DNA of 25,173 nucleotides from a virus (taxonomy: Duplodnaviria; Heunggongvirae; Uroviricota; Caudoviricetes), in IMG/VR virus record IMGVR_UViG_2703718872_000032; one strand, given 5' to 3'. The position numbers and the translations under genes are program-made. Below, piece by piece: positions 7,671-19,644 of the stretch. Position 1 is the first letter of the stretch. Each line of letters begins with the position of its first letter. The notes beneath the pieces were generated by a model. The model was not told the origin of the DNA, did not search any database, and saw only the letters and a list, made by a program, of their open reading frames with translations.

Positions 7671-7901
7671 ATGCTTAAAACTGACGCTCTTTTGTATTTC
7701 GGTTCAAAAACAAAACTTGCACAAGCAGCAGGTATTCGTTTGGCTTCGCTTTATAGCTGGAAAGGGGATTTAGTTCCCGAAGGTCGCGCGATGCGTCTAC
7801 AGGAGGCATCTGGCGGGGAGCTTCAGTATGATCCCAAAGTTTATGACGAATATCGTAAGACGAAGCGGGCGGGGCGGTTGAACAATGAAAATCACTCCTG
7901 A
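7671..7901 (+). CDS. dicC: Cro-like regulator DicC (76 aa)
   Basis: MLKTDALLYFGSKTKLAQAAGIRLASLYSWKGDLVPEGRAMRLQEASGGELQYD... matches DicC as I recall it. Confidence 0.9.
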   Translation: MLKTDALLYFGSKTKLAQAAGIRLASLYSWKGDLVPEGRAMRLQEASGGELQYDPKVYDEYRKTKRAGRLNNENHS

Positions 7902-8406
7902 ACAGGCTCGTGAGGCTCTGGATGCCTGGATATGTCGACCAGGAATGACACAGGAGCAGGCGACGATATTAATCACTGAAGCATTCTGGGCTTTGAAAGA
8001 GCGCTCGAACATCGATGTTCAGCGTGTCACATATGAAGGTGGCGCGGTTGATCAGCGAGCGCTTAGCGTTAATCGAGTGAAGATATTTGAACGCTGGAAG
8101 GCTATCGACACCAGGGATAAGCGTGAAAAGTTCACAGCGCTAGTGCCTGCAATTATGGAGGCTATCCGGATTAGTGATTTCAGGTTGTATCGTGAAATTA
8201 GTGACGGAAAGAGCATTACGTACATGATCGCTGGGTTAAATAAAGAATATGGCGATGTGGTGGAGTCCGGACTGCTTTTTGCAGATCCTGCCGTTGTAGA
8301 TCGTGAAACTGACGAACTTATAGAAAAAGCAATTGCTTTCAAGCTTGCGTATCGACAGCAATACCAACAAAAAGCTGGATGGAATTATGAGTCTTCTTTT
8401 TGCTGA
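7885..8406 (+). CDS. YdaT-like / CII-position regulatory protein (173 aa; full-length counterpart of K-12 ydfX?)
   Basis: Follows the cro-like gene. Motif FERWKAIDTRDKREKFTALVPAIMEAI resembles the Rac YdaT motif HRWLKGETKTQREKIQKLIPAILAIL (from memory). Confidence 0.6.
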   Translation: MKITPEQAREALDAWICRPGMTQEQATILITEAFWALKERSNIDVQRVTYEGGAVDQRALSVNRVKIFERWKAIDTRDKREKFTALVPAIMEAIRISDFRLYREISDGKSITYMIAGLNKEYGDVVESGLLFADPAVVDRETDELIEKAIAFKLAYRQQYQQKAGWNYESSFC

Positions 8407-9352
8407 ACGCCCACTGGTTATAAACACGCAGCTGGCAATGAAAATCGGCTTAAACGAAGCCATTGTTTTGCAACAACTGCACTACTGGTTGAGAGATACC
8501 AACTCCGGTATGGAATGTGATGGTGTTCGCTGGATTTATAACACAACGGAACAATGGCTGGAACAGTTCCCATTCTGGTCAGAGTCAACGTTAAAGCGCG
8601 CGTTTGCAAGTCTGAAAACGCTGGGGCTTTTGCGTTGTGAAAAGCTCAATAAATCAAAGCGCGATATGACCAATTTCTACACGATCAACTATGGGAGCGA
8701 GCTTTTAGATGGTGGCAAATTGAACGAATCCATCGGTTCAAAATGCGCCGCTCCATCAGGTCAAAATGACACGATGGAAGAGGTCAAAATGAAACGCTCC
8801 ATTGGTTCAAAACGACCCAATGTCATCGGGTCAAAATGGCCTGATGATCTTACAGAGAATACAACAGAGATTACTACAGAGAATAAAAACACTTTTCGTC
8901 CGGAAGCTTCGCAACCGGACCCGCAGACGACTGAACAGGATTTTTTAACCCGGAACCCCGACGCGGTTGTGTTTAGTGTGAAAAAACGCCAGTGGGGTAG
9001 CAGGGAGGATTTGGCGTGTGCGCAGTGGATTTGGGGGCGGATCGTGAACCTTTACGAACAGGCTGCCAGCGACGATGGAGAGATCATGCGACCAAAAGAG
9101 CCTAACTGGACAGCCTGGGCCAATGACGTGCGCACAATGCGGATGCTGGATGGCAGAAGCCATAGACAAATTTGCGAAATGTTTGGTCGGGTACAGCGGG
9201 ATCCATTCTGGGTAAAAAACATCATGAGCCCGTCAAAACTCCGCGAAAAATGGGACGAACTGGTCATCCGCCTGGGACGTTCACCTGAACAGCGTTGTGT
9301 GAATCATATTTCTGAACCGGATACAGAAATTCCGCCTGGTTTCAGAGGATAA
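8387..9352 (+). CDS. Phage replication initiator (lambda O-like organiser) containing the origin iterons
   Basis: Start at MSLLFAERPLVINTQ (internal Met of track ORF 8333..9352). Position after cro/cII-like genes. The gene body contains five 23-bp-spaced repeats that encode a repeated IGSK peptide motif, as in lambda O/ori. Confidence 0.7.
   Translation: MSLLFAERPLVINTQLAMKIGLNEAIVLQQLHYWLRDTNSGMECDGVRWIYNTTEQWLEQFPFWSESTLKRAFASLKTLGLLRCEKLNKSKRDMTNFYTINYGSELLDGGKLNESIGSKCAAPSGQNDTMEEVKMKRSIGSKRPNVIGSKWPDDLTENTTEITTENKNTFRPEASQPDPQTTEQDFLTRNPDAVVFSVKKRQWGSREDLACAQWIWGRIVNLYEQAASDDGEIMRPKEPNWTAWANDVRTMRMLDGRSHRQICEMFGRVQRDPFWVKNIMSPSKLREKWDELVIRLGRSPEQRCVNHISEPDTEIPPGFRG
8731..8838. repeat. 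Replication origin iterons: 5 direct repeats at exact 23-bp spacing (consensus catcggtcaaaatg)
   Basis: Copies start at 8731, 8754, 8777, 8800 and 8823. Followed by an A/T-rich stretch with acagaga repeats (8852..8885). Confidence 0.65.
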
Positions 9353-9392: not shown

Positions 9393-9794
9393 GTGGCAAA
9401 AGTTTTTACACAAGAAGAGCGGGAAAAAATTAAAGGGCAGGTGGTGGAACTCGTGCGCCAGAGTGGTCGTGAGACGTTACGGCAACTGGAAGCTAAAACA
9501 GGTGCGACTAGATATCTGATGAGCGTTCTTGCCAGAGAGCTGGTAGCCAGTGGCGATGTATACAACTCCGGCTACGGGTTATTCCCGTCTGAACAGGCGC
9601 GTAAGGACTGGCAAAACGCCCGCAAAAAACTATCGAGGGCAAAGGTGAAGAAAACAGCTGTGGTTGATCCGGACCTTATCTGGTCGTTACCTGATGGAGA
9701 AATACGTCGCTACGACAGTCGCCTAAACATAATCTGTCGCGAGTGCCGGATGAGTGAAGTTATGCAGCGCATACTGGCATTTTATCAGGGATAA
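9393..9794 (+). CDS. Hypothetical protein (133 aa), GTG start
   Basis: ORF preceded by taagggggac. Basic protein with a C-terminal CxxC. No family recognised. Confidence 0.45.
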   Translation: MAKVFTQEEREKIKGQVVELVRQSGRETLRQLEAKTGATRYLMSVLARELVASGDVYNSGYGLFPSEQARKDWQNARKKLSRAKVKKTAVVDPDLIWSLPDGEIRRYDSRLNIICRECRMSEVMQRILAFYQG

Positions 9795-9887
9795 TGTTAG
9801 GTATTTTAGACGTTACTAGATTAAAAAGCATTAGTTCAGGAGTGAATTGACATTCTCATTTTTCATGGCACAGGGTAGATCTGGCGT

Positions 9888-9917
9888 GGTTGTCCGCTTT
9901 GTGCCAGGAGCGGACGT
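9888..9917 (+). repeat. att-like site A: GGTTGTC + inverted repeat GTCCGC/GCGGAC + conserved 18-mer TGTGCCAGGAGCGGACGT
   Basis: 18-mer at 9900..9917 is identical to 12452..12469. Same GGTTGTC prefix as sites B and D. Confidence 0.5.
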
Positions 9918-10007
9918 TGCTAATGGCATGATGTATGAACCAATGGAGAACCGATCATCTATACACATATAGATCCCTAACGAAAATATTGTTTTCACTA
10001 GCCCTGT

Positions 10008-10044
10008 AATGGAAGCGTTAATTTTATATTCTAACGCTTCCATT
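10008..10044. repeat. Perfect 13-bp palindrome with 11-nt loop (aatggaagcgtta ... taacgcttccatt)
   Basis: Read directly. Lies 3' of the SDR gene but is not followed by a T-tract on either strand. Confidence 0.5.
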
Positions 10045-10096
10045 GAGCCTACCACTTTGGCAAAGCAATTCTTACACTTCAAAATAATGTGCTTTT

Positions 10097-10843
10097 TTAT
10101 TCAGCTAAATAACCGCCATCGATTGGATAAACGCCTCCGGTACAGAATGTAGAACTGTCTGACAGCAAGAACAATATGAAGTCTGCTATTTCCTGCATTT
10201 TTGCCATCCTTTTCATAGGGTGGCTATTTGCGAAACTACTTACAATATTTTCAGGGAACTCACTCATTCTTTGGGTTTGGACATAGCCCGGAGCGACTGC
10301 ATTGATTCGAATGCCTTGACATGCAAACTCTAGCGCTGCGGTTTGGGTTAAACCGATTATACCATGTTTAGCCACGGTGTAAGGTGCTAATCCAGGAATG
10401 CCAACCAGACCATTTACTGCAGATAAATTAACTATAGATCCACCAAACTTCATCATCTGGGGTATTTCATATTTTAGGCAGTGAAAAACGCCGCTCAATG
10501 AGGTAGCAATAACCTTATCCCAGTTTTCAACTGTCTGCTCTGTTATATTTTTACCATGTTCACCTGTTAAGCCTGCATTATTTACAGCATAATCAAGTCT
10601 GCCGAAATGTTTGATAACCTCATCTATCATTTGCCGTACTTGTTCGGGCTGTGACACATCACATCCGATCCCCATGGCTTGTTGTCCCTGTGAAGATAAT
10701 TGTTCCGCTTTTTGTTTAGCCTGTTCTGACGAGCGGGATACAATAACAACTTTTGCACCATGCTTATGTAATTGCTCTGCGACGGCCTCACCTATACCTG
10801 TAGTGCTTCCTGTTATAACGGCAATTTTATTCTGGAAATTCAT
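10097..10843 (-). CDS. Short-chain dehydrogenase/reductase (SDR) family oxidoreductase (248 aa)
   Basis: TGxxxGIG cofactor motif (ITGSTTGIGEA), NNAG, and catalytic YxxxK (YTVAKHG). ATG at 10843 preceded by AGGGGG. Confidence 0.85.
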   Translation of the reverse strand: MNFQNKIAVITGSTTGIGEAVAEQLHKHGAKVVIVSRSSEQAKQKAEQLSSQGQQAMGIGCDVSQPEQVRQMIDEVIKHFGRLDYAVNNAGLTGEHGKNITEQTVENWDKVIATSLSGVFHCLKYEIPQMMKFGGSIVNLSAVNGLVGIPGLAPYTVAKHGIIGLTQTAALEFACQGIRINAVAPGYVQTQRMSEFPENIVSSFANSHPMKRMAKMQEIADFILFLLSDSSTFCTGGVYPIDGGYLAE

Positions 10844-10914
10844 AACCACCCCCTATGAAGTAGAATTGAGTCTTTCATCTGGGATAGTATACAAACCATC
10901 TGTGACAGTTTTTG

Positions 10915-11604
10915 TCAGTACTCTTTCCCCTCGCAGATCCCTTCTTTTATTCTCCATTTTTTCAATAAAATTGTCCTGCTTTCACTATAGTTGGAGTCAA
11001 GTTGCACAATATCTTCAATTTTGTCAGTTCTAAAATGACGAAAATCATTTCTCATCTCGCACCATGCAACCAAAAGCCAGCACGATTCCATGTATACCAA
11101 TCCGATGGGCCATATGACTCGTGAAGTGTAAGAATCTTTTTTATCACAATAATTTATTTTGATTTTCTTTCTTTTTTTTATAGCATTGCGAATGTCTTCA
11201 AAAAAAATCTCATTGTTTTCTGATGGACCGATCAGATAGGATTGACTCTCAATAAGATTTTTCAATTCACTGGGAATGACGGCGTGTATTTTCGCAAGCG
11301 CATTCTTTGCGGTAATTTTGAAATTATAATCTGTATTGTGCGATACCCAATTTAACCCAAGTGTAATAGCATTAATTTCTTCATGAGAAAGATTTAAGGG
11401 GGGCAAATGAAAGTCAGATTTAACAATATAACCAATTCCAGCACCACCTTCAATGCATACTCCTTGATGCTGCAGCGTTTTTATATCTCTGTAAAGGGAG
11501 CGTACACTTATTCCCAATCTTTCTGAGAGGATGGATGCTGTGATCGGATATCTTTGTGCCCTTAATATTTGTAGTAACTCGAGAAGTCTTTCTGTTCTAG
11601 TCAT
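10915..11604 (-). CDS. HTH + WYL-domain transcriptional regulator (YafY-like), 229 aa
   Basis: N-terminal HTH (MTRTERLLELLQILRAQRYPITASILSERLGISVRSLYRDIKTL) followed by a WYL-like central region. Same strand as the SDR gene, immediately upstream of it. Confidence 0.75.
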   Translation of the reverse strand: MTRTERLLELLQILRAQRYPITASILSERLGISVRSLYRDIKTLQHQGVCIEGGAGIGYIVKSDFHLPPLNLSHEEINAITLGLNWVSHNTDYNFKITAKNALAKIHAVIPSELKNLIESQSYLIGPSENNEIFFEDIRNAIKKRKKIKINYCDKKDSYTSRVIWPIGLVYMESCWLLVAWCEMRNDFRHFRTDKIEDIVQLDSNYSESRTILLKKWRIKEGICEGKEY

Positions 11605-11822
11605 GTTGATAAATCCATTTTGAGGCGATTTCTTAAAGCATCTGTTAGATAAACATATTAGTACAAAGCAAGTGTACATGGCTAAGCTGAACTGCTACCG
11701 ATGATTAATACAGCGCTATGTTCGTAATGCGTACATAAGCGGTGATCATGAGTGTAAACATCCGCTTTTCGCTTATAAGGGACAACCATACTCAAATTTC
11801 CCACATTGCAGGAGATTTGAGT

Positions 11823-12425
11823 ATGAATACGTCACCGTGGAACAAAGACCGTATCATCGGCCAAAAAAGACCACTTCAGATATCTCATATCTGGGGGATC
11901 CGAATCCGGCTTGAACTGGAAGGTAAAACGCGCGATTTAGCTCTGTTCAATATGGCCCTGGACAGTAAGCTTCGAGGCTGTGATCTGGTCAAACTCAAAG
12001 TATCGGATGTGGCATATGGTAGTTCGGTTTCAAGCAGAGCAACGGTGTTGCAACAGAAAACCGGTAGCCCTGTGCAATTCGAGATAACCAAAGGGACAAG
12101 AGAAGCTGTTGCTGCATTGATAAAGCTTGGCAATTTGCACAGTAAAGACTTCTTGTTTCGGTCTCGGGTCGGAACTAACCAGCACATTTCAACCCGGCAA
12201 TACAACCGAATCTTTCATGGGTGGATAGAAAAACTTGGTCTCGAAGGTTCACTTTACAGCACACATTCAATGAGAAGAACAAAACCTTACCTGATCTACA
12301 AGAAAACCAAGAATCTCCGGGTGATCCAACTTCTGTTGGGTCATAAGAAACTGGAAAGCACAGTCCGTTATCTGGGCATTGAAGTCGATGATGCGTTAGA
12401 GATCTCTGAATCGATTGAAGTCTAA
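11823..12425 (+). CDS. Small tyrosine site-specific recombinase, FimB/FimE-like (catalytic domain only, 200 aa)
   Basis: ATG at 11823 preceded by AGGAGA. Alignable by eye to FimE: RDLALFNMALDSKLRGCDL vs ARDYCLILLAYRHGMRISEL; STHSMRRT vs THPHMLRH; LLLGHKKLESTVRYL vs DYLGHRNIRHTVRYT (conserved R, H-x-x-R, H, Y). Confidence 0.8.
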   Translation: MNTSPWNKDRIIGQKRPLQISHIWGIRIRLELEGKTRDLALFNMALDSKLRGCDLVKLKVSDVAYGSSVSSRATVLQQKTGSPVQFEITKGTREAVAALIKLGNLHSKDFLFRSRVGTNQHISTRQYNRIFHGWIEKLGLEGSLYSTHSMRRTKPYLIYKKTKNLRVIQLLLGHKKLESTVRYLGIEVDDALEISESIEV

Positions 12426-12469
12426 GGTTGTCAGGGCTGCAACAGCAGCCCTGTGCCAGGAGCGGACGT
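12426..12469 (+). repeat. att-like site B: GGTTGTC + perfect hairpin GGGCTGC-AACA-GCAGCCC + 18-mer TGTGCCAGGAGCGGACGT
   Basis: Starts right after the recombinase stop codon. 18-mer identical to site A; whole site is near-duplicated (degenerate) at 13971..14014. Confidence 0.55.
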
Positions 12470-12576
12470 CTAGTTCGCTGAACCACAAAAAGTCGTTTCT
12501 AGTTATATTACTGGCTCATTAGTATCTTTATGCGATAATATTTCATACAACCAAAATTATGATGAAGGGAGTTCAA

Positions 12577-13698
12577 ATGGCAATTACGGTCTATTCTCGT
12601 ACATTCAAAAAGGAATTGGACATGGTTCAATTGTTAAACCATTACTCATCAGATAACGCACTCAATTTCAGTGATTTCAAGGAATTTGTTGCCTTTGATG
12701 CAGAGTGCCCAATTTGCAATGTAAGCGGTGCGATTGTTGTTTCAGAAGGTTATTCGAAAAGAACAAATAAGATAGTCAGCCAATCTCATTTTGCGTTTAG
12801 AACAAAAGACGGAACTGATGCACACAAAGTATTTTGCGATCATTACAGTGGTGATGATAAGCAAATAGATTCATCAAGGGATGGTTTTATAAAATTCGGC
12901 ACCTCAGGTTCTGAGATTACAAGTATAATTCGCGAGCTTGTATGTAGAGGTATTGAACATGATGAGTTCAATCAGGAAGATATTCGAAACATGCGGCAAT
13001 GGTTTACAGAATTACGCCAGTCAGGCACTTTTTCTGTTAACTATAGCCCTCACATGATCAATCTAATAAGGGCCAGCATGTATTCCCGTAAGGGAGAAAG
13101 TAAATATATTGTAGATGAAGAGAGGAAAAATAAATCTTGGTTTGATATAAACGATGAAGTGTATCGTTCGTTAAGATTCAAATATCCATCATTGATGATC
13201 GACATGACTAATGAAAATAATTCTGTTTTCTATAATCTTGTGAATAGTACCACATTTACTAAACAAGCACATCGATTAGTAGCACGAGATCGAGGTTATC
13301 AGGTTTATGATAGAAGGTTGCTTAAAGAAAAATATGAAGCAACGATAAGAGTTGCACAAAAAATAACCAGGCATCACGAATTTCTTTTTAGGAAAATCAG
13401 GGGTATATCCGCTGTTAAAAAAAACAACCCCCTTTTGGCTGTATCTGCCTTGCTTCTTTTTGTCTCGGACTGGAATGAAACAACTGCAATCAACAAATTC
13501 ATCAAATTGTGTGGTGTAGGGAAATCTAAAAATAATGATGAGGGGAATGTAATTGGCTTAAATCCCTTTATTCATTACGATGTCTGGAATGTTATTCATC
13601 AACTTAAGGATTTAATGGTTACACTTCCAGACTTCTCAAATCTTGATGAAGAATTTGACAGAGAAAAATCCAGATTAATTGAACTTTACAAGCTCTAA
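12577..13698 (+). CDS. Hypothetical protein (373 aa), AT-rich cargo gene of unknown function
   Basis: Long ORF with AAGGGAG RBS 5 nt before the ATG at 12577. Visibly lower GC than the flanking phage genes. Contains CPICN and CDH motifs. No family recognised. Confidence 0.65.
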   Translation: MAITVYSRTFKKELDMVQLLNHYSSDNALNFSDFKEFVAFDAECPICNVSGAIVVSEGYSKRTNKIVSQSHFAFRTKDGTDAHKVFCDHYSGDDKQIDSSRDGFIKFGTSGSEITSIIRELVCRGIEHDEFNQEDIRNMRQWFTELRQSGTFSVNYSPHMINLIRASMYSRKGESKYIVDEERKNKSWFDINDEVYRSLRFKYPSLMIDMTNENNSVFYNLVNSTTFTKQAHRLVARDRGYQVYDRRLLKEKYEATIRVAQKITRHHEFLFRKIRGISAVKKNNPLLAVSALLLFVSDWNETTAINKFIKLCGVGKSKNNDEGNVIGLNPFIHYDVWNVIHQLKDLMVTLPDFSNLDEEFDREKSRLIELYKL

Positions 13699-13740
13699 CA
13701 TAAACTAGCAGGCTGCGTATACAGTCTGCTAATTTTCATA

Positions 13741-13970
13741 GTAAAGACTTCATGCTTCAGTCTCGAGTTGGAGCTATCCGTCACACATCACCCAGGCAAT
13801 TCAACCGAAATTTTTCATGGGGGGTAGAGAAGTTTTGTCTCGAAGATTTGCTTTACAGCATACTAATCATTGAACCTCTGTTGAACCATAAGAAACTGGC
13901 AAGCACAATCCGTTGCTTGGGCATTGAATTCGACGATGCGTCGTATAGCTCTGACTTGAACAAAACATAA
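13741..13970 (+). pseudogene. Degenerate duplicate of the recombinase 3' end (about 230 bp, with internal deletion)
   Basis: DNA from agtaaagacttc onward parallels 12141..12425. Translation FNRNFSWGVEKFCLEDLLYS...LNHKKLASTIRCLGIEFDDA parallels YNRIFHGWIEKLGLEGSLYS...LGHKKLESTVRYLGIEVDDA but lacks the catalytic H-x-x-R block. Confidence 0.65.
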
Positions 13971-14014
13971 GGTTTTTAGGGCTGCAACAGCACCTCTGTG
14001 TCATAGGCGGAAGT
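13971..14014 (+). repeat. att-like site C (degenerate copy of site B)
   Basis: ggtttttagggctgcaacagcacctctgtgtcataggcggaagt versus site B ggttgtcagggctgcaacagcagccctgtgccaggagcggacgt. Confidence 0.45.
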
Positions 14015-14311: not shown

Positions 14312-15565
14312 ATGTCAAAAAATCTCCCGGTTTTATTAAGCTCGCCATCAACAACTAATTTTCCTGCAACAGTTAATACTGAAATAGAATTCCTTTCGCA
14401 AGCTAGAAAGTTGTTAGATTCTGGCTTCCCTGATCATGCTCTTTTAGATATATGGAATGCATCCATTCATAATCTTAGGCGGCGAATTGAGGCTTATGGT
14501 TTAGACTTATTCCTTTCCGCAATAAAGGATGATAGTGGTCGTAAAAAATATGATAAAGATGGTGAAACAATAAACGAGAGATGGTCAGGTGTAGATGATT
14601 TAGTGCTAATAAGTGGAGCCACCAAATTAGGGGTTCTGCATAAGAAAGCTGGAAAATCATTAGAAATGATCAATTGGATGAGAAACCATGCCTCTCCAGC
14701 CCATGCAAGTGATAGTAAAGTAGAGTCTGAGGATGTGTTTGCTTTGGCTCTTATGCTCCAGAAGAATTTATTCGAATCTGATATGCCAGACCCTGGACAT
14801 TCGCCATCTGGATTATTTGAACCCATAAAAAAATCTGAACTATCAATTGAGAGCATAGACTTACTTAAAGATCAAATAAGAGCATTTAAGCAAGCTGATA
14901 TAAGAATAACATTTGGATTTTTATTGGATTTAATAACTAAGGGGGAAAATCCTGCTTATGTTAATGCTAGCAAGTTGTTTGAACAAGCATGGGAAAGATC
15001 TAATGATGACCTTAAAAAAACAGCGGGGGAAAGATATCACTCATTTATGCTGGAGCCCGAATCGGATACAAGTGAGGATAAAGGAGCAAAAATAAGAATT
15101 TTAGAGACTTTAGTAAAAGTTAATGGTGTGAAATTTATACCTGATGCTGCTAGGGCAAGTTTATACAGACATGCGGTTAAACAGCTAGCTAAAGCTAAGG
15201 ATACATCTTACGGCTGGAATGATGAAGAAAGAGCAGCCAAGGCACTTATACAATTTGGACCTCATGTTCCATCTATTGCTTTTGAAGATGTATATCAAGA
15301 AATACTTACTGTTTGGGTGGGGAATTACTGGGGAAGATCTGATGCACATTTAGTACTTCAACCATTTTTAGATGTGTTAAATAGTAATCAATTGATGGCT
15401 CTCTCACGGTTGTTCGTGGAGAATGAAAGAGCAAATTCAGAACTGGTGTCATCAAGGCCCAAAAGAAGAGCAATAGAATTACTTGAGATAATAAAAAATA
15501 ATCTAACAATTCAAGCAAGCATTGATGAAATTGATAGGATTATTTCTGAAATTGATAAAATGTAA
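14312..15565 (+). CDS. Hypothetical protein (417 aa), AT-rich cargo gene of unknown function
   Basis: Long ORF with AAGGAAA RBS and an AT-rich upstream promoter region. Intrinsic terminator directly downstream. No family recognised. Confidence 0.7.
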   Translation: MSKNLPVLLSSPSTTNFPATVNTEIEFLSQARKLLDSGFPDHALLDIWNASIHNLRRRIEAYGLDLFLSAIKDDSGRKKYDKDGETINERWSGVDDLVLISGATKLGVLHKKAGKSLEMINWMRNHASPAHASDSKVESEDVFALALMLQKNLFESDMPDPGHSPSGLFEPIKKSELSIESIDLLKDQIRAFKQADIRITFGFLLDLITKGENPAYVNASKLFEQAWERSNDDLKKTAGERYHSFMLEPESDTSEDKGAKIRILETLVKVNGVKFIPDAARASLYRHAVKQLAKAKDTSYGWNDEERAAKALIQFGPHVPSIAFEDVYQEILTVWVGNYWGRSDAHLVLQPFLDVLNSNQLMALSRLFVENERANSELVSSRPKRRAIELLEIIKNNLTIQASIDEIDRIISEIDKM

Positions 15566-15682: not shown

Positions 15683-15741
15683 GGTTGTCGAAAGGCCCGC
15701 TTCTCGCTCAAAGCGGACTAGAAGGTTAGCTTGTGTCGGAC
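15683..15741 (+). repeat. Possible degenerate att-like site(s) D
   Basis: ggttgtc + inverted repeat ccgctt/aagcgg + agcggac (15683..15718), then aaggtt...tgtgtcggac (15722..15741). These resemble the outer motifs of sites A and B but without the intact 18-mer. Confidence 0.25.
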
Positions 15742-19103: not shown

Positions 19104-19644
19104 CTTTAAATGGGGCAATAGAGATATTGAATCTCATCCCGGGATAAACATTGGCAGTTGAAGGTCCACGCGAACCATTTATCCAGCAAAATTCCACGCG
19201 TAATCCTGTGGTAATTTCTTCTGCATCTCGAAGATTGAGAGCTGAAACGTGAAGCTGGGCATCGATACGCCATCGGATGGGAATATAAGACCTTTGCTGC
19301 TTTTGTAGTCAAAGTTTTTGACAATTCCTGTCATTTTAGGGGACAGAAAAACTCCTTAATACTGATAACCTGGTGCACCATACACACGTTCCTGGAGAAA
19401 ACTACTTTTTTGATAGGGTTGAAGGTGGCTGGATGTCTAAAATAAACATTGCTTCATATGTTCAACTATGAGTTAATGACTGTGTCGGTTTGAAGAACAG
19501 ACGATATACGAAGTAGTTTACTAAAGCAGTTCTCATTTCAGGTGTTATTCACTTATTCCTTCTTTGAGTCTCTCCAATTAAGTACGAAGTCGTTTCTGTT
19601 ATGCAAACCATTTATGCCGAAAGGCTCAAGTTAAGGAATGTAGA

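Follow-up and report, generated by a model that had tools for sequence, protein, structure and literature searches.

What a transcriptional regulator and a metabolic enzyme do side by side in a prophage, and how they came to be there, is the question raised by positions 10,097 to 11,604 of IMG/VR virus record IMGVR_UViG_2703718872_000032. The stretch analysed (25,173 nucleotides, hereafter the window, to which all positions refer) is a segment of an Escherichia coli chromosome that runs from rspB through a Qin-type lambdoid prophage, and it is 100% identical to DNA of three Shiga toxin-producing E. coli genomes. In a preliminary description made from the letters of the window, the two genes had been presented as a short-chain dehydrogenase/reductase (SDR) gene with a WYL-domain regulator gene directly upstream, both antisense to the phage early genes and carried as prophage cargo. 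Each of these points was borne out: profile searches identified both proteins on the minus strand, the genes run against the early rightward genes (dicC, ydaT-like, replication-like and DUF977), and the status as cargo was confirmed by absence of the insert from related prophages and by its GC content. We consider it rather probable that the two genes constitute a self-contained operon of sensor and enzyme that has been packaged as a mobile cargo module. We are highly confident of the operon, its operator and the ends of the module, moderately so of activation as against repression, and have little confidence as to the ligand, the substrate and the mobilising enzyme.

A short YafY-type regulator is paired with a short-chain dehydrogenase/reductase

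The regulator gene lies upstream of the SDR gene and is co-directional with it across a gap of 71 bp. It encodes a short winged helix-turn-helix (wHTH)-linker-WYL transcription factor (Table 1). The preliminary description had called for a search for WYL and WCX domains; the former was found and the latter is absent. The generic WYL profile of PADLOC (229 positions) matched the protein at 2.6e-61, and its orthologues are named 'YafY family' in RefSeq and PLSDB. A longer open reading frame (ORF) reaching 11679 was rejected, since orthologues diverge and carry indels upstream of 11604. In an AlphaFold2 model built from 31 homologues (mean predicted local distance difference test score, pLDDT, 78) a winged HTH occupies residues 1-61 (helices 3-46, beta-wing 51-61), a helical linker residues 74-119 and the strands of the WYL barrel residues 146-205. 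After the barrel only about 24 residues follow, which form a single helix (210-221) and no further domain. The WCX domain, which measures about 75-100 residues in the class of BrxR, CapW, PafBC and DriD, is thus missing, and the regulator is 40-100 residues shorter than these four proteins. Foldseek matched the model to PafBC (1.8e-10), DriD (2.9e-9), BrxR (6e-8) and CapW (2e-7), the structural matches being 266-347 residues long. The regulator profile aligns onto the WYL core of PafBC, and R162, R185, R189 and R192, the canonical basic residues of WYL domains, are invariant in the 31 homologues.

The SDR starts at ATG 10843 in its orthologues and in the annotation by the Prokaryotic Genome Annotation Pipeline, whereas the mechanical ORF begins at GTG 10849. 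The enzyme has the motifs TGSTTGIG (TGxxxGIG), NNAG and YTVAK (YxxxK) and the serine within NLSAV, and 16 orthologues keep them. Its best matches among solved structures are ketoreductase-type enzymes (5x8h/6ixm, 2e-59; 8y7r; 5h5x) and the cyclohexanol dehydrogenase 4ure; 5x8h/6ixm, 8y7r and 4ure are matched over the full length at 2e-59 to 3e-54. After strand beta-2 the enzyme carries an arginine (VSRS) where related ketoreductases have an aspartate, and by established SDR rules this arginine indicates that it is probably NADP(H)-dependent. No NCBIfam equivalog reached its cutoff for the SDR and no PADLOC match was found. The ratio of nonsynonymous to synonymous substitution rates (dN/dS) is 0.07-0.25 for the two genes across 10-11 orthologues. 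This indicates purifying selection and shows that they are functional genes and not chance ORFs. Both exact proteins were found on at least 1000 contigs.

The pairing of regulator and SDR was scanned in one genome per species. In all 15 species genomes with a regulator at least 63% identical, the SDR gene lies 70-75 bp downstream in the same direction, and the pairing also holds in Cronobacter, Citrobacter and Shewanella contexts. Among 64 more distant relatives of the regulator none has the SDR gene in this arrangement.

A predicted operator overlaps the -35 position of the SDR promoter

Between the two genes lies the perfect palindrome TGACAAAAACTGTCA, our predicted operator, followed by a -10-like hexamer (Table 1). 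This box is invariant across the orthologous cassettes, down to copies from Shewanella and Rosenbergiella with 66-70% nucleotide identity. The same box also follows regulators that are only 39-49% identical and have a different downstream gene: in seven of eight such loci, which include Legionella, P. aeruginosa, Microvirga, Rhizobium and C. malonaticus, a glyoxalase/VOC gene (about 125 codons) takes the position of the SDR gene. At some of these VOC loci a GyrI-like or EVE-domain gene is the neighbour, or genes of the alkB/ada type lie close by.

The spacing of the box is conserved as well. A TAnnnT hexamer is found exactly 11 nt past it in each of 24 distinct sequences, which represent eight diverged lineages and differ in their hexamers. 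In most of 60 distant YafY loci, CTCCTGACA-N5-CTGTCAGGAG occurs one to four times per locus, with GATAGT or GATACT 12 nt beyond it. In Alpha- and Betaproteobacteria these elements mostly stand in divergent promoter regions adjoining the YafY gene. CTGACA-N5-CTGTCA located 11-12 nt upstream of a -10 box therefore looks like a general operator/promoter signature of YafY regulators, a family criterion which was derived in this analysis and not from the literature.

The shorter pattern TGACA-N5-TGTCA is expected about once by chance in the window. A second match (TGACAATTCCTGTCA, 19319-19333, in the region of a cold-shock gene) was rejected as a target, having neither the CTGACA flank nor TAnnnT at +11. 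The family box occurs once in the whole cargo region, at the SDR promoter, and was not found upstream of the regulator gene, the adjacent recombinase gene or the neighbouring genes for proteins of 379 and 417 residues. This points to the SDR gene, and not the neighbouring cassettes, as the regulated target. The proposal that the regulator might control those cassettes was thus not upheld, all the more as the pair travels without these neighbours in every other genome examined. The palindromic operator sought in the same context does exist; it lies between the regulator stop codon and the SDR gene, and neither upstream of 11604 nor upstream of other cargo genes.

Another palindrome, GTACA-N7-TGTAC, is imperfectly conserved at 11661-11677, between TAGCCA and TAATAT, each motif occurring once in the window, and a direct repeat of AGATGCTT is also present upstream of the regulator gene. 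Both were rejected as operators: they are conserved among enterobacterial copies only, are degraded in those of Rahnella and Citrobacter, and have been lost by half in that of Cronobacter. A single GTACA-N7-TGTAC match equals chance expectation (40 of 100 shuffles). These elements are presumed to be parts of the regulator's own promoter.

By its geometry the SDR promoter resembles those at which PafBC and SiwR, both WYL activators, act from the '-26 region', and activation by the regulator is for this reason somewhat more likely than repression.

The pair is bounded by inverted 24-bp sites

The pair occupies a module of 1.9 kb (9892-11782) with inverted 24-bp sites at both ends. The consensus of these sites, GTCCGCTYTGWGCSAGRAGCGGAC, consists of 7-nt inverted arms, which could form a 7-bp stem, around an asymmetric 10-nt centre. 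With up to five mismatches allowed, it found no match in 30 shuffles of the window. Four sites (A to D, Table 1) structure the cargo region: > SDR-regulator < recombinase > 379-residue gene, recombinase remnant, 417-residue gene <.

The module ends were located by comparison with other genomes. In E. coli 042 and other Qin-like prophages, homology to the window ends at 9915-9924 and restarts at 15692-15697, with different cargo in between; in 042 the breaks fall at 9923 and 15697, and between them only the recombinase segment 11761-12469 is in common. The restart was seen in 042, in K-12 and in about 29 IMG/VR prophages. For the pair itself, the ends (9887-9902 and 11763-11783) are the same in at least ten unrelated contexts. 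These include Klebsiella plasmids, where the pair lies within another lambdoid remnant, a Rahnella plasmid, where it lies between insertion sequence (IS) elements, Cronobacter chromosomes, where it adjoins fliE, chromosomes of Citrobacter, Serratia, Raoultella and Pectobacterium, and further loci with mutually unrelated flanks. Homology breaks inside the site centre, at GTCCGCTTTG^WGCSAG.

The preliminary description had the pair inside a single att-bounded cassette together with the recombinase. The repeat on which this could be based is real (18 of 18 nt, 9900-9917 and 12452-12469, overlapping sites A and C), and an A x C excision product of 2552 bp is possible. As the basic unit, however, one element of SDR, regulator and recombinase was rejected, since the pair and the recombinase are separate modules that occur independently, each with its own ends. 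In 14 of the 15 species the pair has the same ends and no recombinase within 6 kb, and the recombinase module is found without the pair in about 1087 E. coli genomes. In Klebsiella spallanzanii the module lies on the opposite side of a recombinase gene whose polarity with respect to the sites is the same.

The Shewanella and Rosenbergiella copies have only the coding region in common with the others; they lack the 24-bp sites and lie in ordinary chromosomal neighbourhoods, and may stand for the native operon that gave rise to the module. The concern that the pair might be a conserved chromosomal operon brought here by rearrangement is thus right in one part, in that the operon is also conserved in site-free chromosomes, and wrong in the other, as it lies here precisely between recombination-type sites and not at a random rearrangement.

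Further features agree with a moron. The insert is missing from Qin-like prophages that have both flanks in common, its GC content is 38-41% compared with 45-48% in the phage DNA on either side, it has its own conserved promoter regions, and a strong hairpin lies downstream of the SDR gene. None of 200 shuffles folded as well as this hairpin, which is terminator- or stabiliser-like without a T-tract and has no Rfam match. A Rfam scan of 9700-12700 gave no meaningful match, and no copy of the cassette was found among INPHARED phage records.

Table 1. Coordinates of the genes, sites and predicted regulatory elements of the cargo region.
Feature	Position	Strand	Basis or remark
Site A, left (SDR-side) module boundary, GTCCGCTTTGTGCCAGGAGCGGAC	9892-9915	+ ('>')	0 mismatches to consensus
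Hairpin about 50 nt downstream of the SDR stop	10000-10049	-	fold -30.6 kcal/mol, z = -4.2
Classical SDR, 248 aa	10097-10843	-	Pfam adh_short_C2 4.2e-70, adh_short 6.4e-56
-10-like hexamer TATACT of the predicted SDR promoter	10886-10891	-	11 nt after the box
Predicted operator (TGACA-N5-TGTCA)	10903-10917	-	overlaps the regulator TGA stop; in place of a -35 element
wHTH-linker-WYL regulator (YafY/COG2378 type), 229 aa	10915-11604	-	Pfam WYL 1.8e-16, HTH_11 1.6e-13
Conserved region, presumed regulator promoter	11605-11700	-	alignment of 16 cassette copies
Site B, right (regulator-side) module boundary and left boundary of the recombinase module	11759-11782	- ('<')	degenerate, 6 mismatches
Tyrosine recombinase, catalytic domain only, 200 aa	11823-12425	+	PF00589 1.1e-17; divergent from the regulator
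Site C	12444-12467	+ ('>')	18/18-nt direct repeat in common with site A
379-aa cargo protein	12559-13698		PHROG 12525, 2.3e-147
Recombinase 3'-end remnant	13719-14014		74-77% identical to 12120-12469; own degenerate downstream site; separates the 379-aa and 417-aa genes
417-aa cargo protein	14312-15565		PHROG 27609, 6.9e-186
Site D, right end of the whole variable cargo region	15695-15718	- ('<')	1 mismatch to consensus

The gene order of the prophage is int, xis, a recE-like exonuclease gene, dicB, dicA, dicC, a ydaT-like gene, a replication-like gene and a DUF977 gene, followed by hokD, rem, ydfU, a Q-like gene, lysis genes and nohA. We propose that the slot which separates the DUF977 gene from hokD receives site-bounded modules in general.

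Two further loci of the module are of note for their surroundings. On the Rahnella aquatilis plasmid CP042359.1 (locus 7760-9024) an IS110-family transposase gene abuts a truncated regulator-side site, and a second IS110 copy lies 5 kb off. IS110/IS1111 elements target palindromic sites, and by this preference IS110 may target the 24-bp element. In an 11.5-kb locus of Raoultella planticola ATCC 33531 at least nine sites, with '<' '>' pairs back to back about 18 nt apart, surround the SDR-regulator module, and no recombinase was found within 6 kb of it. This array resembles an integron cassette array without an integrase.

The recombinase module and the neighbouring cargo

The adjacent recombinase module (11757-12469) is bounded by sites B and C ('< int >'), and its homology to other copies starts at 11757-11761. 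It was found in 1090 of 5426 complete E. coli genomes and on many enterobacterial plasmids, and its DNA identity is 93-97% in these E. coli genomes and across E. coli, Klebsiella, Pantoea, Lelliottia and Kosakonia. The protein is 78-97% identical across Enterobacterales, Idiomarina, Pseudoalteromonas and Cycloclasticus, and at least 8000 protein clusters match it at E < 1e-10. The NCBIfam XerA/integron-integrase model scored 53.9 bits against it, far below its cutoff of 220. Two assignments were rejected. The K-12 gene ydfW is not a remnant of this recombinase, there being no tblastn match in the 7.5-kb K-12 Qin stretch that contains it, and the IntKX subgroup of Smyshlyaev et al. comprises integrases of integrative and conjugative elements and was brought in by a coincidence of names.

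At 24 recombinase loci, outer '> cargo' and 'cargo <' sites stand on either side wherever both flanks were captured; the degenerate sites adjoining the recombinase passed the threshold of five mismatches in only some of them. The recombinase module typically has one cargo module on each side.

The 379- and 417-residue proteins had no match in Pfam, NCBIfam or PADLOC. Their genes fill the slot downstream of the recombinase where other prophages have DarG, TIR or PDC-S31 modules. As with the remnant that separates them, many IMG/VR loci carry fragments of the recombinase only, for example residues 162-200 or 25-103.

The sites delimit a wider pool of cargo modules

The exact degenerate 24-mer occurs in at least 120 IMG/VR viral contigs, from which 80 site-bearing stretches were sampled. 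Orientation switches from one site to the next in 79 of 92 consecutive pairs, and the sites of back-to-back pairs lie about 18 nt apart. By megablast, 29 of the 80 stretches are homologous to the prophage of the window; most of those that span the slot end near 9915 and resume near 15697 with a single module between. The other 51 have no backbone similarity to this prophage and a GC content of up to 57%, so the site system is not confined to Qin-like phages.

Eighty '> ... <' modules fell into 54 types of 0.6-3.7 kb, which gives at least 54 types of cargo. The commonest (ten copies) encodes a HAD hydrolase and a NUDIX hydrolase. Other sampled cargo comprises a TIR-transmembrane protein, a trypsin-like protease, a RelA/SpoT-like protein, DUF2971/PDC-S31, a ParA-like ATPase, DarG (PADLOC 1.9e-79), a VOC/bleomycin-resistance-like protein and ChaC, as well as apparent MFS, LysR and CDF proteins, these last recognised by inspection of the sequence and not by profile search. 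In Qin of E. coli K-12 MG1655 (NC_000913.3, 1643000-1650500), flxA and, by coordinates, ydfV lie between '>' and '<' sites (at about 3996 and 3005 of that stretch), in which no homology to the recombinase was found. The K-12 slot otherwise holds relBE and hokD.

The sites are far more frequent than the recombinase, which was present in one of the 80 stretches, the window's own prophage. A tight linkage of recombinase and sites had been expected at first and was downgraded to an inference by this count. We tentatively suggest, as possible though short of probable, that the pair belongs to a large stock of exchangeable modules, apparently new to the literature, which Enterobacterales share with other Gammaproteobacteria. 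These would be flanked by inverted 24-bp sites, dock in prophage slots, plasmids and chromosomes, and be swapped by the 200-residue recombinase, itself packaged as a module. No published description of the recombinase, the 24-bp site or the site system, including integron-like or dif-like systems in Enterobacterales, was found in the open-access literature, and an earlier description may nevertheless exist.

The sites could instead be boundary hairpins, that is, insulators, terminators or short patches of homology, between which modules are swapped by homologous or RecET/Red-type recombination, with the recombinase as unrelated cargo. The low count of recombinase genes among the sampled stretches would fit this explanation, as would the site-flanked flxA module of K-12 without recombinase homology, the RecE-like exonuclease encoded by the prophage and the stem that each site can form. 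It accounts less well for the alternating orientation and the close back-to-back pairs, for a core laid out, by its inverted arms and asymmetric centre, like the site of a tyrosine recombinase, and for breakpoints at one position within that centre. Furthermore, the recombinase gene is bracketed by sites in nearly all of the 24 loci examined, and modules also occur in chromosomal and plasmid contexts outside phages. On this evidence we judge boundary hairpins to be the unlikely explanation, though one with a real claim to consideration.

Proposed mechanism and alternative functions of the pair

In the mechanism that we favour, an operon moved between 24-bp sites, the 229-residue protein would be made from its own conserved promoter. 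Its dimer would bind TGACA-N5-TGTCA over its own stop codon, upstream of the SDR -10 hexamer, and govern transcription of the SDR gene according to a ligand that the WYL domain binds. This ligand may be single-stranded DNA (ssDNA), as for PafBC, DriD, SiwR and CapW, or a small molecule. The whole unit would have reached the Qin-type prophage by exchange at the inverted sites. Our best guess for the SDR is a carbonyl/alcohol oxidoreductase with a role in the detoxification of carbonyls, aldehydes or quinones, as suggested by the VOC-type genes that accompany related regulators. Most likely the module serves the lysogen in stress or in the detoxification of xenobiotics, rather than in phage defence. 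Of the two functions considered in the preliminary description, a ligand-responsive metabolic moron is the better one.

Several points weigh against this mechanism. In the catalytic tetrad of the SDR the asparagine is replaced (ATSLSG, residues about 113-118) and all 16 members of the clade have Ser or Thr there, where the aligned solved relatives 5x8h, 8y7r and 5h5x have NLDG or NFNG. The sole ground for a role in detoxification is the kind of gene that lies next door in relatives. The box begins with 3-8 nt of coding sequence, and part of its conservation is therefore not independent evidence. There is no box upstream of the regulator gene, so autoregulation, if any, would act through another site. 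A palindrome over the -35 position would suit a repressor equally well, as for CapW and BrxR. In CapW the 3' end of ssDNA docks against the WCX domain (PMC11662680), and absence of this domain here weakens the analogy with ssDNA as ligand. Only 3 of the 5426 complete E. coli genomes carry the pair, and with a degenerate site B this copy may no longer be mobile. In other phages the slot carries bona fide defence genes (DarG, TIR, PDC-S31). Finally, DNA binding by the regulator, the sign of its control, the ligand, the substrate and the moving enzyme are all predictions from computation and not from experiment.

The defence genes in the slot leave a modest chance that the pair is a defence system as well. 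It could be an undescribed two-gene anti-phage or anti-induction system, in which the WYL protein senses ssDNA arising from infection or induction and induces the SDR, which then depletes or modifies a metabolite that the phage needs. We hold this to be improbable. The company of DarG, TIR-transmembrane and PDC-S31 modules, the binding of ssDNA by the WYL domains of CapW, DriD, PafBC and SiwR and the invariant basic residues would agree with it. The slot, however, also holds plainly metabolic cargo (HAD with NUDIX, ChaC, apparent MFS, LysR and CDF), site-free versions of the pair lie in the ordinary chromosomal neighbourhoods of Shewanella and Rosenbergiella, relatives of the regulator control VOC/glyoxalase genes beside housekeeping or DNA-alkylation repair genes, and the SDR has no PADLOC match.

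The regulator might also act in the manner of BrxR and CapW and repress neighbouring cargo (the 379- or 417-residue gene or the recombinase) until infection, with the SDR as a bystander. Defence systems such as BREX and CBASS are under the control of WYL regulators from the same fold family (PMC9122601, PMC9122588, PMC11662680), BrxR and CapW are matched by Foldseek at about 1e-7, and defence genes occupy the same slot elsewhere. Membership of the BrxR/CapW class, which the preliminary description had raised, does not fit a protein of 229 residues (266-299 in that class) without a WCX domain and without an adjoining defence operon. The family operator is found only at the SDR promoter, the regulator travels with the SDR in 15 of 15 species and never with the 379-residue, 417-residue or recombinase neighbours, and the two former are without any PADLOC, Pfam or NCBIfam match. 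We therefore regard such a role as very unlikely.

That the pair is a decaying, non-functional hitch-hiker in a cryptic prophage, as the several pseudogenes of this Qin-like prophage and the degenerate site B might suggest, is hardly credible in view of intact reading frames, the low dN/dS, exact proteins on at least 1000 contigs and a conserved promoter and operator.

Comparison with known systems

Among characterised regulators, AntJ of Photorhabdus luminescens is a short HTH_11/truncated-WYL activator of the adjacent nine-gene anthraquinone cluster, with ligand-dependent activity; its closest homologues were reported in Legionella and Pseudomonas (PMC5133734), where distant relatives of the present regulator are also found. 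The two proteins have the same two-domain architecture with a C-terminally short WYL domain. The target of AntJ is a cluster of nine genes, whereas here it would be a single co-directional SDR gene.

SiwR is an ssDNA-sensing activator of adjacent small enzymes and acts at the -26 region like PafBC (PMC10693628); the regulator is likewise predicted to control a small enzyme encoded next door. The wHTH-linker-WYL fold of SiwR, PafBC and DriD (PMC10693628, PMC6789036, PMC11804915) is the same as here (Foldseek 1e-10 to 1e-9), and the canonical WYL arginines are kept. In PafBC and SiwR the site at about -26 replaces the -35 element; here the box precedes the TAnnnT hexamer by 11 nt. These proteins have 317-347 residues (664 in the fused PafBC of Arthrobacter) including a WCX domain, in contrast to the single helix past the barrel of the present regulator. 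They are actinobacterial or alphaproteobacterial, and ssDNA sensing is their property, which can be extended to this regulator by analogy only.

With BrxR and CapW (PMC9122601, PMC9122589, PMC9122588, PMC11662680) the regulator has the HTH and WYL folds (Foldseek 6e-8 to 4e-7), a palindromic operator, predicted in this case, and residence on mobile DNA in common. It differs in that they possess a WCX domain and adjoin the defence operon that they regulate, whereas no recognised defence operon adjoins here. Their operator lies at a divergent or their own promoter, and that predicted here at the promoter of a downstream metabolic gene. The SDR agrees with the ketoreductases 5x8h/6ixm, 8y7r and 4ure in its size of about 250 residues, the TGxxxGIG and NNAG motifs and the Ser-Tyr-Lys residues, and departs from them in the Arg in place of Asp after beta-2 and the Ser in place of the tetrad Asn.

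As to the modules, those of Acinetobacter dif systems have 28-bp XerC/XerD sites, use the host Xer proteins and reside on Rep_3 plasmids (PMC13141974, PMC9947245, PMC11705084). Both systems have cargo of one to three genes, inverted sites of alternating orientation, reuse of modules across contexts and mixed cargo, which in dif modules comprises resistance, toxin-antitoxin and metabolic genes. The present system differs in its 24-bp sites, which are found in enterobacterial prophages, plasmids and chromosomes, and in the dedicated 200-residue recombinase that is present at times. By eye, the consensus does not resemble E. coli dif.

Integrons are alike in being a recombinase-associated platform with interchangeable cargo of mostly one to three genes, imperfect palindromes and defence genes in the cargo pool. 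Their integrase IntI has about 320 residues with a specific insertion, and each promoterless cassette carries one attC and lies in one orientation downstream of Pc. Here, by contrast, the recombinase is a catalytic-only protein of 200 residues and not IntI, the 24-bp sites are inverted at both module ends, and the module, which brings conserved promoter regions of its own, is placed upstream of the recombinase gene and divergent from it. In organisation the nearest analogues are the dif modules of Acinetobacter or the engineered exchange of cassettes between inverted sites, and the system differs from both integrons and Xer/dif sites in the features named.

Implications for YafY regulators and module exchange

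Taken alone, the gene pair is a routine moron of regulator and enzyme and of little weight; its interest lies in the operator architecture of YafY regulators and in the system of site-bounded modules. Short YafY-type WYL proteins form a very large group that has hardly been studied, and the predicted box and its distance from the -10 element provide a concrete operator/promoter architecture for them. This architecture would tie these regulators mechanistically to activation of the PafBC/SiwR type, and it would make their regulons predictable from sequence.

The module system, if our tentative proposal is true, would represent recombinase-mediated cassette exchange as it occurs in nature, a parallel to integrons and to the dif modules of Acinetobacter but not identical with either. 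Through it, genes for defence (DarG, TIR, PDC-S31) would spread along with genes for metabolism or detoxification. If the recombinase drives the exchange, this would be a new route for the trade of accessory genes among temperate phages and plasmids, and the 24-bp site would serve as a simple sequence marker with which new cargo, including new defence systems, may be found.

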